From: Planctomycetota bacterium
GTDB lineage: Bacteria; Planctomycetota; PLA2; JAEUHO01
Direction of reading: 5' to 3'
DNA length: 64,000 bases
NCBI GenBank assembly: GCA_965222115.1
Contig: CBDCTJ010000003.1
Location: forward strand, 96,001 to 160,000
The notes beneath the pieces were generated by a model. That model was not told where the DNA came from. It did no database searches and worked only from the letters and a program-made list of their open reading frames with translations. Below, piece after piece: positions 22,621 through 28,659 of this stretch; position 1 is the first letter of the stretch; each line of letters opens with the position of its first letter. The translations under genes and the position numbers were made by a program.

Positions 22621-23696
22621 ACGAGCACGACGTAATCATTTCCGGGATTGGCGTCATATCGGGGCTCGCGCGCAATGCACCGGCCCATATTGATGCATTG
22701 GCTCTCGGAACCTCGGCACTGCAAGCGGACCCCATGGGCAGCGAAGGGACACAGTGGGCGCCCATGGAAGCGCCGGTACTTCGCAACTCAGTCCCCGATG
22801 CCTTAGAGACCCAGGTTCGTTTCCTCAATCGGGCTGGCGAGGCCGCCGTGGAAGCTGCGCGGGAAGCCATGCTCCATGCCCAACTGGCGACGGAAGCGAG
22901 CGTCGCCGACACAGAAGATCCGCACCCCCGTCGCGGGCTGTTCTTAGCTCAAGTCGATGGTTCCAACTGGGACTGCAACGAGTTTTGGCCGTCGGTGTTG
23001 CAGGCGCCGCGCTATGCCGACGGCGAACCCACACAGGAATCCTACAACCGCGCAGCCGCGCGCCACGTCAAGCCCTACTTCATTCTCGAAGACCTTAAGA
23101 ACAATGCGTTCAGTTTCATTGCCACGTGGTTTGGTCTGGGTGGCGCCAATTCAAGCGCAACGGGCTACGCCGGGCCTGCCCTGACCCTTGTCAATATGGC
23201 CGCGCGTTCGATTCGCCTGGGCGAGCTGGACGTCGCACTTGTGGTCGCAGCCGCCAATCCGCTGGATGCCATCGCACGTGCGGAAGCACGTATGCGACTT
23301 GATCTCCCCTTGTGGTCACCCGGAGAGGGCGGGGCGGCCCTTGTACTTGAGTCCAAGGCTTCGGCTATTGCTCGCGACGTCAACGCGCTCGCCGTCCTTG
23401 ACAAATACCGTGTGCATAGCCTCGGCGACGAATCCTGGGCCGCGATGCTCGATGGCGTGTCGTGCGACGCCTACCTGTCGGCCCGTGTCTCAACACTACC
23501 CAACGCAATTCGCCCCATCGTGAGCTGGGATGCGGCATGGGGCGACATGGCCATGACGAGTGATCTTGCCACGCTGGCACTGGGCGCACAGTCGTTGGCG
23601 TCGAGTTCTGCCTCGGACTCGATCGGCTTGCTTACGCAGGGACTGCGGGGCGAATGTCACGTGCAGACGATTCGGCGGCTGTCCCCCAACGCGTGA
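22617..23696 (+). CDS. KS-like/chain-length-factor subunit 2
   Basis: IISGIGVISG, PYFILEDLKNN, PGEGGAALVLE; no catalytic Cys. Confidence 0.75.
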   Translation: MNEHDVIISGIGVISGLARNAPAHIDALALGTSALQADPMGSEGTQWAPMEAPVLRNSVPDALETQVRFLNRAGEAAVEAAREAMLHAQLATEASVADTEDPHPRRGLFLAQVDGSNWDCNEFWPSVLQAPRYADGEPTQESYNRAAARHVKPYFILEDLKNNAFSFIATWFGLGGANSSATGYAGPALTLVNMAARSIRLGELDVALVVAAANPLDAIARAEARMRLDLPLWSPGEGGAALVLESKASAIARDVNALAVLDKYRVHSLGDESWAAMLDGVSCDAYLSARVSTLPNAIRPIVSWDAAWGDMAMTSDLATLALGAQSLASSSASDSIGLLTQGLRGECHVQTIRRLSPNA

Positions 23697-23768
23697 TCCC
23701 CTCTGTGACTCATGCGGTATACTTCGGCTGCCTTCGGCGTGGTTTCGCTGAATGTTGGAGATTGATTC

Positions 23769-24755
23769 ATGACGCGCATGACGCTCGTGTTGTCAGGGAC
23801 TGCCTTGGTCTTTCTACTGACCCTTGGTGCCACCTCGGTTCACGCCAAAGCGGTCGTCGGCGATCGCGCATTCGATTTCGTCGGCAAAGAGTTCGTCAAT
23901 TCCGAGCCGTTTACGTTGGCCGACGTACGGGGCAAGTTGCTGCTCTACGAGTTCATTGGAACCGGCTGAAAGCCCTGCCATCACCAGGTCGTGCACCTGA
24001 ATGAACTTCAAGAAAAATACGGTCCCAAGGGACTTGTGGTCCTGAGCGTATCCAAAGAGCCGCGTTCCAACATCGACGAGTTCGTTGAAAAGACCGACTG
24101 CAAGACGCCCATCATGATCGAGGAGACCAACTCGGCCGATGCGTACGGCGTCACCAGTCTCCCAAGTATGTATGTGATTGGGCCCCGAGGTCGTGTGCTC
24201 TGGAATGGCAACCCCGGTAATCTTCGAGACAGTGAAATTGAAGGTTGGCTGGAAGGCATCCGTCCTACGCCTACATTTCCCAAGGCCATGTCCTCGGTAA
24301 AGAAGGCCTTCGCCAAGTTCAAGTATGCCGACGCGCGCAAGAAGGCACAAGCACTTGTGGACAAGGGCGGTGATGAAGACGTGGTGAGCGCCGCCAAAGC
24401 AACCGTCGAGTGGATCGATTGGTGGGGCACGGGCGGTCTCGAAGACGCGGCCAAAGACGCGGAGGGCGGCAACCCGTTCGCCGCGTGGGTGCAGTACGAC
24501 GAGATTGCGACGTCGTTCAAGGGTCTTGAAGCGGGAGACAAGGCCAAGGCCGCCATCAAGGAACTGTTGGCCGACAAAGACGCAAAGAACGAAATCAAGG
24601 CCGGCAAGAAGTGGCTCAAACTCGAAGCCAAAGTGCGCGACCTGTCCAAGAAGAAGGCGCTGCGACTCTTGGAACCCTTCGTAAAGAAATATGGAGAGTT
24701 ACGTGCGGCCGCACGTGCCAAGGCGCTGCTTACGAAACTGAAAAGGTCCAAGTAA
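23769..24755 (+). CDS. Candidate selenoprotein: exported TlpA/AhpC-TSA redoxin with UxxC motif and helical C-terminus (328 aa, Sec67)
   Basis: ORFs 23769..23969 and 23991..24755 are in frame across TGA 23967-23969: GKLLLYEFIGTG-U-KPCHHQVVHLNELQEKYG; hairpin after the TGA; signal peptide. Confidence 0.88.
23970..24003 (+). promoter_or_regulatory. Putative bacterial SECIS element
   Basis: CAGGT-CGTGC-ACCTG stem-loop 16-30 nt after the TGA, with G in the loop. Confidence 0.6.
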
Positions 24756-24767
24756 CGGTTACGCGCT

Positions 24768-25130
24768 TTGACCTCGCTAACCAACCTTCGACCTACGGGC
24801 ATTCGCCTACGTTGGCTCATCGGGTTCGCCGCATTTGCAGCGGCCGTGGCGTGGCTCGCACTTGTCCATGCGAGATCCTGGCCGGTTGCCGCGCGACTCG
24901 CGGTCGTGTTGCCGCTCTTCGTCGGCTTGCTGGGAATGGATCAAGCACGTACCGGGACCTGAGTGCGTCTTGCACAGCAGGGCGTCCGTGAAGGCGACCC
25001 GGGGCTTGTACCCGTCGCAAACGCCGATGAGGCGAAAACGCTCAAACGGCGCGGCCACGCGATTCTCATACGGAGCGCTCTCCTTGCGCTCATGTTCGCT
25101 GTTGTACTTACGTTCGTCCTCCCAGGCTAG
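24768..25130 (+). CDS. Candidate selenoprotein: small 3-TM membrane protein (120 aa, Sec65)
   Basis: Reads through TGA 24960-24962: LLGMDQARTGT-U-VRLAQQGVREGDPG...ALLALMFAVVLTFVLPG to TAG 25128-25130; hairpin after the TGA. Confidence 0.72.
24963..24996 (+). promoter_or_regulatory. Putative bacterial SECIS element
   Basis: CGTCTT-G-CAC ... GTG-AAGGCG stem closing a G-rich loop (CAGGGC). Confidence 0.5.
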
Positions 25131-25370
25131 CCCGGATGTTGCACGAACAAGGTGAATCGCGCGGTTCTCGCTGGTCTTCGTCCCCAATCTCATTGCGGAG
25201 AACCGCTCAGCGATGCTTTTGGCATCGCCTCGGAACCACCGCTTCGATCTTGGACCCGAATCCTCACCGAGAACACCTTGTCATTCTTCGTTCGCATGGA
25301 GTTCGATCACAAGTCCCCAATCCACAACTCCTTGCGTTGCCCCGGACGCGCGCTTCGTGCAACATCCGGG
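25131..25370. mobile_element. MITE (non-autonomous IS derivative), 240 bp
   Basis: Perfect 17-bp TIR CCCGGATGTTGCACGAA (25131-25147 / 25354-25370) flanked by CTAG on both sides (25127-30, 25371-74); no transposase. Confidence 0.85.
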
Positions 25371-25420
25371 CTAGCGCATGCTTGAACCGGAGGGTTGCGC
25401 GGCGTGTAAGATCGCTCTCG

Positions 25421-26743
25421 ATGCGCCCCTTCATCATTCTCAGGCCTACGTTCCGTCGATTCGCTTGGATATGCGCATGCGTCGCGGCAGCCACGCTCAC
25501 GCCTCGAGGGGTCCTCGCCCATCCCCATACCACGCCCGCACCCGTCAATGTCTACGTGGAAATCACAAAGGACATCATCCACTCCACCGTGACGGTGGAT
25601 GAGCCGCTGTTTCGCGCCTGGGTGGGTCGAGAGGGTTCGGGGGAGGAGCCCAACAAGGAGGATGCGCAGTCGTTCGTGCAAAAGCACGCACCGGTGAAAG
25701 TAGGCGACGTTGAAGTGACCCCGCGTGTGGAACAAGTTCAGATGCTTCCCGCGTTTCGCCCCATTGATCCGACGCAACCTGAAGTGCCGGAACGCTACAT
25801 GGTGCATGTGCGCTATCCACTGTCCGTTGCAGAGATGCCGCCTGAGATTCACTTTTCGTGGGACCGATTTGATGGCGTGGATTGGGAAGGATCCGTACAA
25901 GTTCCAATCACGCTGAAGAGCCCCGGCAACTTCGCGGACAATCTGTTTTCGCCGATCGATCCGCACTACACCTGGCGCGCCAGTGAACACAAGCCGCGTC
26001 CGGTTCGCGACGTCGCGCATGTCGAAGCCAAGCCCCCCGAGCGCTGGACCATTCCGATGGCGCCCATCTTCGTCATCCTGGCACTGCTCGCCGTGCGGTG
26101 GCTCCCGATACTTCGACGTGCGGGGACACCGCTACGCGCATCCGTTGTTGCCAGTTCGATGGCCGCCGCTGCGTTGCTGTGGGCACCGCTGACCCTGTCG
26201 ATCGTCGCGCCGGGAAGCGCTGGCTCGGTCCTACCAACGGCCGAAGAAGCCAAGGTGATCTTCGAGCAACTCCTCGACAATGTATACGCGGCGTTTGATG
26301 CCGACGACGAAGACGCCATTTACGATCGCCTCGCCCTGAGTATTGATGGCGCGCTCATCAACGACGTGTATGCGGAGGTCTACGAGAGCCGAATCATGCG
26401 CAACAACAGCGGCGTGATCGTGGTCATCGATTCTGTGGATCACGACGACCGCCACATCGATATTCCCGAAGCGGTGTGGAAACGCCATTTCGATGTCATT
26501 TGGTCGTGGCGCGTTCACGGTTCAATTACACATCTGGGCCACACACACAAGCGAACCAACTTCTACCGCGCAGAGTTCACCGTGCGACACACGGGCGACG
26601 CGTGGAAGATCGCTTCGCAGAAGATTTTTTCGCATAAGCGGGAGGACACGGACGTGTATCCCGAAGGCCAGGCTCCCAAGGATCTCAAACCAAGCGACGC
26701 CCCCACCGTAAAGACGCCGATCATGGGTGGATCACCCAAATAG
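25421..26743 (+). CDS. Exported/membrane hypothetical protein at head of putative metal-uptake operon
   Basis: Signal peptide ending VLA-HPH; two TM segments; C-terminal HLGHTHKRTN. Confidence 0.7.
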   Translation: MRPFIILRPTFRRFAWICACVAAATLTPRGVLAHPHTTPAPVNVYVEITKDIIHSTVTVDEPLFRAWVGREGSGEEPNKEDAQSFVQKHAPVKVGDVEVTPRVEQVQMLPAFRPIDPTQPEVPERYMVHVRYPLSVAEMPPEIHFSWDRFDGVDWEGSVQVPITLKSPGNFADNLFSPIDPHYTWRASEHKPRPVRDVAHVEAKPPERWTIPMAPIFVILALLAVRWLPILRRAGTPLRASVVASSMAAAALLWAPLTLSIVAPGSAGSVLPTAEEAKVIFEQLLDNVYAAFDADDEDAIYDRLALSIDGALINDVYAEVYESRIMRNNSGVIVVIDSVDHDDRHIDIPEAVWKRHFDVIWSWRVHGSITHLGHTHKRTNFYRAEFTVRHTGDAWKIASQKIFSHKREDTDVYPEGQAPKDLKPSDAPTVKTPIMGGSPK

Positions 26744-27493
26744 ATGGTTACGGAGTCGCACACCACGGAGCTGACACCGCGAGATCGCGTCTCGTCGCAT
26801 ATCTCTGTATCCAATCTTGTGTGGACCTACCCCAAGGATCGACTTGATTTTGAACTGCGTGTTCCAGTGCTTGACGTGTTGCCGGGAACGAGCACAGCCT
26901 GCACGGGACCCAGCGGATCCGGGAAGAGCACGCTGTTGCAGATTGTTGCTGGCATCCTTTGGCCTGCTCAGGGTCGTGTCGTGGTGGGGCCGCTGGATCT
27001 CTCCGCAGACGCCTCGCCTGCGCCCAGCGACGCCACGCGACGCGCGTTTCGCATTCAACATATTGGCATGGTCTTTCAAGAGTTCGCGCTGCTCGATCAC
27101 CTGACCGTGGAAGAGAACATCCTCCTACCCTACGCCATTCACCGTGTGCACAAGAAAACACCCGATGCCCTGAAGCGCGCCCGCGCACTTGCCGATCAAG
27201 TTGGCATCGCGAATCACCTTCACCGCTACCCAGCGTGGCTCTCGCAGGGTGAGCGCCAACGCGTCGCGGTGTGTCGTGCGGTAGTTACGCACCCGCAAGT
27301 CCTGCTGGCCGATGAACCCACGGGCAATTTGGATCCCGATACGTCGGACGTCATTGTAGAAGTCTTGCTAAACGAAGTACGCACGCGCGGTGCCTCGCTC
27401 ATCATGGCCACGCACGACGTCAGTCGCATTGCGAGTTTCGATAGTCACTTGGCGCTGGACAAAACGTCAAGGGGCGCGGAGAAGGCGACATGA
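26744..27493 (+). CDS. ABC transporter ATP-binding protein (LolD/MacB-type)
   Basis: GPSGSGKST, LSQGERQRVA, ADEPTGNLD. Confidence 0.9.
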   Translation: MVTESHTTELTPRDRVSSHISVSNLVWTYPKDRLDFELRVPVLDVLPGTSTACTGPSGSGKSTLLQIVAGILWPAQGRVVVGPLDLSADASPAPSDATRRAFRIQHIGMVFQEFALLDHLTVEENILLPYAIHRVHKKTPDALKRARALADQVGIANHLHRYPAWLSQGERQRVAVCRAVVTHPQVLLADEPTGNLDPDTSDVIVEVLLNEVRTRGASLIMATHDVSRIASFDSHLALDKTSRGAEKAT

Positions 27494-28659
27494 AGGACCT
27501 CATCGGTCTTGCGTGGCGCTACATTCGCCACTATCCGCTGCGTAGTAGCCTATTGGTGCTGTGTATTGCGTTGGTGATCGTGTTGCCGCTTGCCGTGCAC
27601 CTGCTCATGGGACGCTACGAACAATCGATTCGCGGTCGTGCCGAGGCAACCCCGCTCGTTGCGGGCGCCGTGGGGAGCCGTTACGACCTCGTACTCAACT
27701 CGCTCTACTTTGCCGGACGGGTACCGCGCGCAATGTCCATGGCAGATGTGAAGGCGCTGGATACTCGCAAACCGGGAACCGTGGTGCCACTTCTCATTCG
27801 TCACCGTGCGAGTGACCATGCCATCGTGGGCACCACGCTTGACTACATGCGCGCGCGCGGCGTCACGGTTGCGAATGGTCGCGGATTGCGGGTACTGGGC
27901 GACTGTGTACTGGGTAGTGAGGTCGCACGTTCACTATCGCTTGGACCGGGCGATCACATTTTGTCGGATCGGAATCACTTGTACCGATTTGGTATGGAGT
28001 ATCCACTGCGAATGCGCGTCGTGGGTGTGCTCAGCCCCACGCACGGACCGGATGACCACGCAGTCTTTACCGACATCAAAACGACGTGGGTCATGGAGGG
28101 CATCGGGCACGGACACGAGGCCGGCGAAGATCAACCCACGGACCGCGCCTCCAAGGACGCGAATGGCCAGTGGGTGTTCAATGCCGAAGCGGTGGAGTAC
28201 ACCGAGATCGACCCCAACAATGTGGACCGCTTTCACTTCCATGGCGATCCAAGCACGTTTCCGGTCACGGCCGTGTTGTTGTGGCCACGCAACGATCGCG
28301 AGGCGACGATCGTGCAGGGCAAGTTTCGGTCGCATCAACGAATACAGTTGCTCGCACCGTCGGGCGTGATGGCGGAGATCTTGGGCCTGGTGTCCTCGCT
28401 CAAGACGTTCTTGGATGCGAATCTCCTGCTCGTGCTGCTCGCGTGTGCGCTATTTCTCGCACTGATCGTCTTGCTCACGCTTCGCGTGCGGGCGCGAGAG
28501 ATGGATACGTTGTATAAGCTCGGGTGCGCAAAGAACACGCAGGCCAAGCTCATTAGCCTTGAGTTGTTGATCCTGATTGGGGCGGGAATAGCAGTAGGAT
28601 TGCTTCTTGCCTTGGGAGCTAGTGCATGGATAGCCGGACAACTACCCCTAAGTCTCTAG
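27490..28659 (+). CDS. ABC transporter permease (FtsX/MacB-type) with His motifs
   Basis: LAWRYIRH; GIGHGH; FHFHGD; C-terminal TMs. Confidence 0.8.
   Translation: MKDLIGLAWRYIRHYPLRSSLLVLCIALVIVLPLAVHLLMGRYEQSIRGRAEATPLVAGAVGSRYDLVLNSLYFAGRVPRAMSMADVKALDTRKPGTVVPLLIRHRASDHAIVGTTLDYMRARGVTVANGRGLRVLGDCVLGSEVARSLSLGPGDHILSDRNHLYRFGMEYPLRMRVVGVLSPTHGPDDHAVFTDIKTTWVMEGIGHGHEAGEDQPTDRASKDANGQWVFNAEAVEYTEIDPNNVDRFHFHGDPSTFPVTAVLLWPRNDREATIVQGKFRSHQRIQLLAPSGVMAEILGLVSSLKTFLDANLLLVLLACALFLALIVLLTLRVRAREMDTLYKLGCAKNTQAKLISLELLILIGAGIAVGLLLALGASAWIAGQLPLSL

Follow-up and report, generated by a model that had tools for sequence, protein, structure and literature searches.

Selenocysteine (Sec) occurs almost exclusively at sites of redox catalysis or ligand binding, and in MerT, a membrane protein of about 116 amino acids (aa) with three helices, the cytoplasmic loop that joins helices 2 and 3 holds a pair of Cys residues. 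In Table 1 of a 2026 review, 119 prokaryotic selenoprotein families are given with domain identifiers, and the membrane selenoproteins of that table include a MerT-type "putative mercuric transport protein" (PF02411), YeeE/YedE, SaoP and the SO_0444 transporter (PMC13188914). The YgaP-like transmembrane (TM) domain (PF11127, formerly DUF2892) has been described from YgaP, a membrane rhodanese of E. coli, of which it forms the two-helix membrane part (PMC4730233, PMC3551814). The gene considered here lies at 24768-25130 in a stretch of 64,000 nucleotides (nt) of a Planctomycetota bacterium (assembly GCA_965222115.1, contig CBDCTJ010000003.1, positions 96,001 to 160,000), called the window below; all coordinates are positions in this window, on its forward strand.

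As read from its sequence, 24768-25130 most probably constitutes a single gene for an integral membrane selenoprotein of 120 residues, with Sec at residue 65. Selenoprotein genes are routinely truncated at UGA by gene callers, which here left a 64-aa "hypothetical protein", and recognition of the family to which this gene belongs would set right the annotation of at least 30 Planctomycetota genomes. Soluble proteins with the thioredoxin fold predominate among listed selenoproteins, to which a membrane-embedded member would be added. Because Sec is almost confined to catalytic and ligand-binding sites, its column should mark the one position that has to be important across the roughly 2,500 clusters of the family.

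A UGA column within a family of three-helix membrane proteins

The frame opened by TTG 24768 runs for 64 codons up to the TGA at 24960-62, then for 55 sense codons up to the TAG at 25128-30, and its read-through product, with U at residue 65, is free of Cys. TTG 24768 is the sole ATG, GTG or TTG start between the in-frame TAA 24753-55 and Asn6, and the start sites of homologs (17 of the 28 same-family genomes) lie 5-16 residues ahead of the invariant Asn. Scored against a family profile built without it, the window gene reached 102 bits, and its C-terminal 55 aa alone 34.8 bits (E 6e-13 for one comparison). By our own arithmetic, the chance of a 55-codon open frame at 59% G+C is roughly 0.15; such a frame being not rare, the feature is judged real because of the downstream homology and not because of the length of the open frame. 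The segment 23700-25177 was identical to contigs from three public runs of one sample, possibly the source of the assembly, and the lack of any differing letter indicates that the TGA is not an assembly slip, although this support is not independent.

Homologs were sought at two scales. A six-frame search of 61 genomes, with the 120-aa product as query, gave matches in 17 of the 28 further genomes that belong to the taxonomic family of the window genome, and no match among the 32 more distant ones. These matches corresponded to 19 places, of which 16 contained one TGA, one contained two (the second being the stop), one contained none (G021, with Cys) and one, a partial match in G019, was dropped as spurious (E 0.17 when re-scored). 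When 401 genomes from the whole phylum were searched with a profile, the family was found in 34 of them, with 31 full-length matches (23 with one TGA and eight with no TGA) and three additional matches spanning the first two helices only. Both searches pooled yielded 30 distinct Sec forms, six Cys forms and one Ser form, the uninterrupted forms looked at being these seven, with G205 left out. The TGA of all the Sec forms that were aligned falls on one column, within the motif Q-A-x-A-K-T-U-V-x-x-A-x-R-G-x-R-E, where G021 has Cys, and the 30 distinct genes which share this column span several families of the phylum. In an alignment of 17 Sec forms, residues M1, N6, R15, L55, Q59, U65 and G72 were invariant, and conservation was clear behind U, the third hydrophobic helix included.

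Cys-containing relatives were found in large numbers. A profile search of metagenomic cluster representatives returned 2513 of them at E ≤ 1e-3, of which 859 remained at E ≤ 1e-10; full-length proteins (108-215 aa) make up the best 150 of the 2513. Among 156 Cys-form matches, 147 could be parsed by pattern, with Cys at the U column in 141 of the 147, while the nine unparsed ones show T-C by eye. A second Cys occurs in the N-terminal tail, just ahead of the invariant Asn, in 76 of these 141 homologs, and another at +9 from the central Cys in 14 of 68 aligned rows; the window protein has neither. With the single protein P0018 as query, Cys forms were also found in five Pyrinomonadaceae (Acidobacteriota) genomes, and the family therefore extends beyond the Planctomycetota. 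Judging from these alignments, a single nearly invariant Cys stands just behind helix 2 and is replaced by Sec, as read from UGA, in most Planctomycetota members. Cys forms are dispersed over a maximum-likelihood tree, between Sec forms, which argues for several Sec/Cys switches.

It could alternatively be supposed that no recoding takes place, the locus consisting of two small genes (the 64-aa open reading frame, ORF, followed by a GTG-started 55-aa ORF at 24963-25130), of a chance frame, or of a frame in which TGA encodes an ordinary amino acid. A GTG does stand directly behind the TGA, and the public annotation calls the 64-aa half only, but in Cys forms both halves are covered by a single uninterrupted protein, the break falls always on the invariant Cys column in 30 distinct genes, and a covarying hairpin (see below) lies behind the TGA. 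The true stop is itself TGA in 9 of the 17 Sec-form genes, so that TGA is not generally reassigned and still serves as a stop in these organisms. We regard this supposition as barely credible, and the family as almost certainly a genuine selenoprotein family. In the protein database, six full-length Cys proteins were found along with 10 entries of 64-78 aa; the five of these ten that were fetched end directly before the U column, and two of them are named "hypothetical protein [Planctomycetota bacterium]".

The original prediction, made from the window sequence, had proposed a frame continuing past the TGA for 55 sense codons, a third TM helix encoded there, a Cys-free product, a start 12 nt behind a UxxC redoxin gene and an uncharacterised selenoprotein family. 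Our re-reading of the frame and of the 120-aa translation agrees with it, the redoxin gene ends with the TAA at 24753-55, and AlphaFold2 places a helix at residues 86-117. An uncharacterised family is likewise what the conserved UGA column, the score of the downstream 55 aa, the abundance of homologs with Cys at the U column and the lack of a family model point to; it is only as database gene calls that homologs end at the TGA.

Several members of the family deserve a separate mention. L062 (in G218), which lies within a clade of Sec forms, carries Ser in the Sec/Cys column, and Glu replaces its conserved Gln59; it may be an inactivated or repurposed copy. G008 contains two Sec-form paralogs (L003 and L019) on different contigs, one beside a gene of the glyoxalase fold and the other beside an HMA-domain gene. 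Two longer metagenomic Cys forms, P0086 and P0096, are extended at the N-terminus, ahead of the membrane domain, by a zinc-ribbon-like segment that contains two CxxC-like pairs; P0086 gave no Pfam match. A search for fused or longer family forms at E ≤ 1e-5 found none and counts as weak evidence. Close relatives of the window copy, sought in metagenome contigs for a synonymous/non-synonymous comparison, were not found either.

The recoding signal and the state of the window copy

From the UGA to +45, the 30 distinct Sec forms can be aligned gap-free, and most of them have a GC-rich hairpin 12-30 nt behind the UGA, in which +15 to +21 pairs with +27 to +33 around a loop at +22 to +26. Across the 30 forms, 80% of the hairpin cells are paired, versus 73.8% in shuffles, five of the seven pairs show changes on both sides, and the covariation score is 0.220 vs. 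0.123, with 0 of 500 shuffles as high and every slid register lower. At least four contiguous pairs around a GGUNN loop were found in 27 of the 30 Sec forms and in 0 of the 7 Cys/Ser forms. The codon of the loop Gly, which belongs to the conserved R-G, differs accordingly: it is GGU in 23, GGG in four, GGC in two and GGA in one of the 30 Sec forms, versus GGC in five, GGG in two and GGU in none of the seven Cys/Ser forms. Judged from these codons, the GGU preference constrains synonymous sites in a way for which only an RNA signal accounts. The G-G-U at +22 to +24 presumably matches the G23/U24 position of the E. coli fdhF element. Together with the scatter of Sec and Cys forms over the tree, this synonymous constraint offers a clean example of an RNA signal overlaid on a conserved peptide, A-R-G-x-R.

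The machinery for Sec insertion was found in the genome of the window: selB (346.6 bits), selA (480.7 bits, split over two contig ends) and selD (150.6 bits, with a Sec codon of its own, in A-A-G-G-U-A-A-K) all score above their cut-offs, and a tRNA-Sec with anticodon tca is present. Located at C1:653800-655637, selD follows the 3' end of selA where the contig ends. A coarse scan of the whole genome for further UxxC/CxxU genes returned 366 candidates, most of them spurious. Among the other Sec-form genomes tested, five of five have selA together with a full-length selB, and selA was also found in four of five Cys-form genomes, so that the form of the gene does not simply track the Sec trait. 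One contig of the window assembly, C6 (48 kb), has 39.7% G+C, vs. 55-59% in the other six contigs, and may be foreign DNA or mis-binned.

Against this background, several observations weigh against a functional selenoprotein gene in the window itself. The selenoprotein status of its product is predicted from sequence. The window copy retains three of the seven canonical pairs, only one of them contiguous (+2.2 kcal/mol), and has GGC for GGU, as in Cys forms; it is thereby one of three Sec forms without the canonical stem and one of two with GGC. A 71-nt stretch of this region folds no better than shuffles (z -0.34), and its alternative hairpins are modest (-8.4 to -9.6 kcal/mol), are outcompeted in the 60-nt fold and show no GGU loop. 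An Rfam scan of 23000-26000 at E ≤ 10 gave chance-level matches only and no selenocysteine insertion sequence (SECIS) family, although Rfam is equally silent at the UGA of the neighbouring redoxin gene. The terminal branch of the window copy in the maximum-likelihood tree (1.27, vs. a median of 0.71) is the second longest of 37. Lastly, selD shows several frame breaks at the contig end, which may reflect either low-quality contig-end sequence or a damaged gene.

Alternative hairpins of the window copy were considered individually. The hairpin noticed in the original prediction, CGUCUU.CAC...GUG.AAGGCG, is present behind the TGA, and could gain two inner pairs that leave an AGGGC loop, but its pair probability is about 0 in the 60-nt ensemble, it does not rise above chance level and it is not the family SECIS. 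A second one, directly behind the UGA, has 9 bp and dominates the 60-nt minimum-energy fold. The third, with the loop CGUGAA, belongs to the fold of minimum energy computed for nt +4 to +45 and may be likened to the hairpin of L046 (in G222), the other Sec form with GGC, which extends from +21 to +39 with a CGUGA loop (-13.1 kcal/mol, pair probability about 1); by this analogy it is a candidate SECIS of the window copy. The window gene and L046 are not sisters in the tree. As the window copy has lost the canonical hairpin, Sec insertion, with a weaker or shifted hairpin, may be inefficient.

These same features would suit a decaying copy within a genuine selenoprotein family, in which the UGA mostly terminates translation, leaving a two-helix fragment of 64 aa, with the downstream frame as a relic. 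The missing canonical hairpin, the Cys-like GGC codon and the long terminal branch all go in this direction, as does the fact that a 55-codon open frame is not rare by chance; in addition, a repeat element has landed on the end of the gene, its left terminal repeat (GCTAGC...) supplying the last codon and the TAG stop. By contrast, the downstream 55 aa still score as homologous, with V66, A69, G72, R74 and the third helix intact, two alternative hairpins are available, one of which mirrors the strong hairpin of L046, and the neighbouring redoxin gene keeps its UGA. This last point, together with selA, selB and tRNA-Sec, indicates that the lineage still uses Sec. We consider decay unlikely, and the window copy probably a functional member of the family.

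Predicted topology, possible role and gene neighbourhood

An AlphaFold2 model, built with a 68-row alignment, reached a mean pLDDT (predicted local distance difference test) of 95 and a pTM (predicted template modelling score) of 0.85. It comprises three TM helices (see the table), a short turn helix (residues 40-44) between helices 1 and 2, and a structured loop behind helix 2, with conserved columns V66, A69 and G72; Sec65 is placed at the start of the short helix 66-71, outside the membrane helices. The mean number of Lys and Arg residues, for which neighbouring segments were summed since segment borders split Arg clusters, is about 4 ahead of helix 1 and about 7 between helices 2 and 3, but 1.6 in the first loop and 0.1 at the C-terminus. 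This positive-inside pattern points to an N-in/C-out topology, with Sec65 at the cytoplasmic membrane face, and the model would bring it beside the conserved N-terminal Asn/Arg tail and Gln59 at that surface. No described fold could be assigned: a sequence-profile search of the PDB gave nothing below E 0.4, Foldseek against the PDB no match at E ≤ 1e-3, and fold comparison with VIA-align generic helical bundles only (best Z 7.6).

From a mechanistic point of view, SelB with Sec-tRNA would read the UGA at 24960-62 as Sec, and the resulting N-in/C-out protein would expose Sec65 at the cytoplasmic end of helix 2, where it would cap the short helix and act as a lone redox-active or ligand-binding chalcogen. 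Such a role, suggested by the presence of a lone, nearly invariant chalcogen at the cytoplasmic membrane face, might consist in relaying a persulfide or perselenide, in a redox step of thiol/selenol type, or in binding a soft metal or metalloid at the inner membrane face, and would resemble proposals made for other small Cys-bearing membrane proteins. By this analogy a redox, a sulfur/selenium-relay and a soft-metal role are our best guesses, each of which, taken singly, we place clearly below an even chance. They are drawn from topology rules, residue conservation and analogy, while no fold or family match gives a function, which counts against them, as does the lack of a recurrent partner by Pfam among the 115 larger and 149 smaller ORFs of 20 Planctomycetota and three Pyrinomonadaceae loci. 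The neighbours found were scattered: HMA, MOSC, DUF454, glyoxalase, MarR, RND efflux and redoxin genes.

A more far-reaching combination, which we hold to be doubtful, would be that a three-helix family of at least 2,500 clusters uses the cytoplasmic-face chalcogen as a catalytic or relay residue, upgraded to Sec in most Planctomycetota, and that the window genome and G222, two unrelated lineages, swapped the GGU-loop SECIS for a CGUGA-loop hairpin 6 nt downstream. If true, the family would represent a new kind of membrane-bound protein handling sulfur/selenium or soft metals, and the SelB of both genomes would accept a second kind of signal.

Coordinates, strands and supporting evidence of the features in and around the putative selenoprotein gene
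Feature	Position	Strand	Basis
Exported TlpA/ResA-like redoxin selenoprotein (predicted), U67-x-x-C, C-terminal helical domain	23769..24755	+	Pfam AhpC-TSA 1.3e-15
Putative 120-aa membrane selenoprotein gene	24768..25130	+	TTG start, Sec codon, TAG stop; own reading and homology
TM helix 1 (predicted), residues 9-35, after conserved N-x-x-x-x-G/x-R-x-R tail	24792..24872	+	AlphaFold2; invariant N6, R15
TM helix 2 (predicted), residues 47-62, ending in conserved Q59	24906..24953	+	AlphaFold2, alignment
UGA read as selenocysteine (predicted), residue 65	24960..24962	+	Column TGA in 30 distinct Planctomycetota genes, Cys in relatives
Predicted cytoplasmic loop behind Sec: short helix 66-71, beta hairpin 73-82 (V-x-L-A-x-x-G-x-R-E...)	24963..25022	+	
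Hairpin CGUCUU.CAC...GUG.AAGGCG of the original prediction	24966..24996	+	-8.4 kcal/mol, or -8.9 with two inner pairs
Site of the canonical family SECIS hairpin (UGA +15 to +33), not formed in the window copy	24974..24992	+	
Alternative candidate SECIS GGG-CGUC / GGCG-A-CCC, loop CGUGAA (+21 to +41)	24980..25000	+	-9.6 kcal/mol
TM helix 3 (predicted), residues 86-117, coded entirely behind the UGA	25023..25118	+	AlphaFold2, downstream homology
MITE-like (miniature inverted-repeat transposable) element directly behind the gene, about 250 bp	25126..25375		Perfect 22-nt inverted repeats 25126-47 and 25354-75

The gene upstream has itself an in-frame TGA at 23967-69, in the motif G-T-G-U-K-P-C; it matches the ResA subfamily of NCBIfam at 3e-23, below the cut-off, and an N-terminal export signal can be read by eye. 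Its 160-residue helical C-terminal domain resembles the C-terminal part of NF041382, the NCBIfam "VPGUxxT family thioredoxin-like (seleno)protein, type 1", at E 7.7e-07 but far below cut-off.

The original prediction had seen in the membrane protein a partner or substrate of this exported UxxC redoxin, encoded by a co-transcribed gene. Indeed, 12 nt separate the two genes, which share the strand and even the reading frame, and a search for redoxin orthologs around the loci of 36 other genomes (flanks of 1.5 to 5 kb) showed that the pair recurs in G021, G025 and G015. Among the redoxin orthologs, that of G021 has Cys, and those of G025, G015 and G013 have U. Both genes of the pair carry Cys in G021 (G-T-Y-C-G-P-C and D-V-C-V-V; L014/L102), and both carry U in its sisters G025 (L017/L104) and G015 (L063), which looks like a joint switch of both proteins from Sec to Cys in G021; this genome retains selA and a selB-like match. 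However, these three of 36 genomes belong to one other genus and thus represent about one event. In G013, the ortholog lies 2.2 kb away with an opposite-strand gene between, in G003 the same upstream cluster (ACPS, FabA-like and ketoacyl-synthase-like genes) borders on the membrane gene with no redoxin gene present, and no ortholog was found within the flanks in the remaining 32 genomes, all outside-family genomes included. Moreover, the Sec loop is predicted to be cytoplasmic while the redoxin has an export signal, and the membrane protein shows neither a DsbD/CcdA-like membrane Cys pair nor a Pfam match to these carriers. A functional partnership is thus quite improbable: adjacency is not conserved, and the two Sec residues would lie on opposite sides of the membrane.

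Downstream, the MITE-like element that provides the end of the gene has three near-full copies (96-97% identity) and more than 10 partial copies elsewhere in the genome, and read contigs break at its ends, where depth rises 5-20 fold. A 535-aa ORF without Pfam or NCBIfam family (25136-26743) begins inside this element; its real start is probably instead the Met near 25421, behind which comes a stretch resembling a signal peptide. Genes of a MacB-type ABC transporter (26744-28659) come next.

Comparison with known systems

Pfam and NCBIfam searches with the window protein, 17 Sec forms and 21 Cys forms returned no family model, and the clusters of the ESM Atlas nearest to the Cys form P0018 are Pfam-free and named "hypothetical protein". 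Seventeen members were compared with the entries of Table 1 of the review (PMC13188914) that carry Pfam, NCBIfam or TIGRFAM identifiers, those listed only as cd/PTHR (thioredoxin-like, 2Fe-2S, BtuF, Fe-S oxidoreductase) being left out, and matched no listed Pfam model and no NCBIfam model at E ≤ 0.05. By these comparisons, the family is absent from the inventories checked, i.e., new to selenoprotein lists, and a full-text literature search found no paper pairing a selenoprotein with DUF2892 or YgaP.

The YgaP-like TM domain (PF11127) is the nearest likeness, with its opening N-x-G-x-x-(D/E)-R-x-x-R-x-x-x-G and an invariant Cys directly behind helix 2, presumably on the cytoplasmic side. Three of the 17 members indeed gave weak Pfam matches to it (best E 0.014), none of which reached the gathering score of 25.3 bits, whereas the window protein gave no match at E ≤ 1 and the 21 Cys forms none at E ≤ 0.1. 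Alignment by hhalign with 26 PF11127 domains of the phylum gave a probability of 26% and covered only the N-terminal 22 columns, leaving out helix 2 and the Cys. The distance from Asn to Cys is about 59 residues in the new family, vs. about 45 in PF11127, and a third helix and a conserved loop containing a beta hairpin are extra features of the new family. The family was not assigned to PF11127, a separate true gene of which is present in the same genome (C3:370066-370230).

MerT and the other listed membrane selenoproteins resemble the new family in being small or polytopic, with Sec standing for a Cys to which the binding or transfer of a soft ligand is ascribed. They differ in sequence, as the 17 members gave no Pfam or NCBIfam match to PF02411 or to the others even at E ≤ 5, and MerT differs further in its Cys pair, where the new family has one conserved chalcogen only. 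The DsbD/CcdA carriers differ as well: neither the window protein nor the 17 Sec forms and 21 Cys forms match them in Pfam, no membrane-embedded Cys pair was seen, and in the AlphaFold2 model the single Cys/Sec position lies outside the helices.

The closest parallel at the level of the gene is that with bacterial selenoprotein genes of the fdhF type. The present case differs from these in that the family is new to the lists, and in that the window copy, at which Rfam is silent, offers shifted or weak hairpins instead of the typical loop. The likeness lies in the arrangement, with a UGA at the position of a Cys, homologs that carry Cys there, a stem-loop shortly behind the UGA with an apical G-G-U in the family at large, and a genome endowed with selA, selB, selD and tRNA-Sec.

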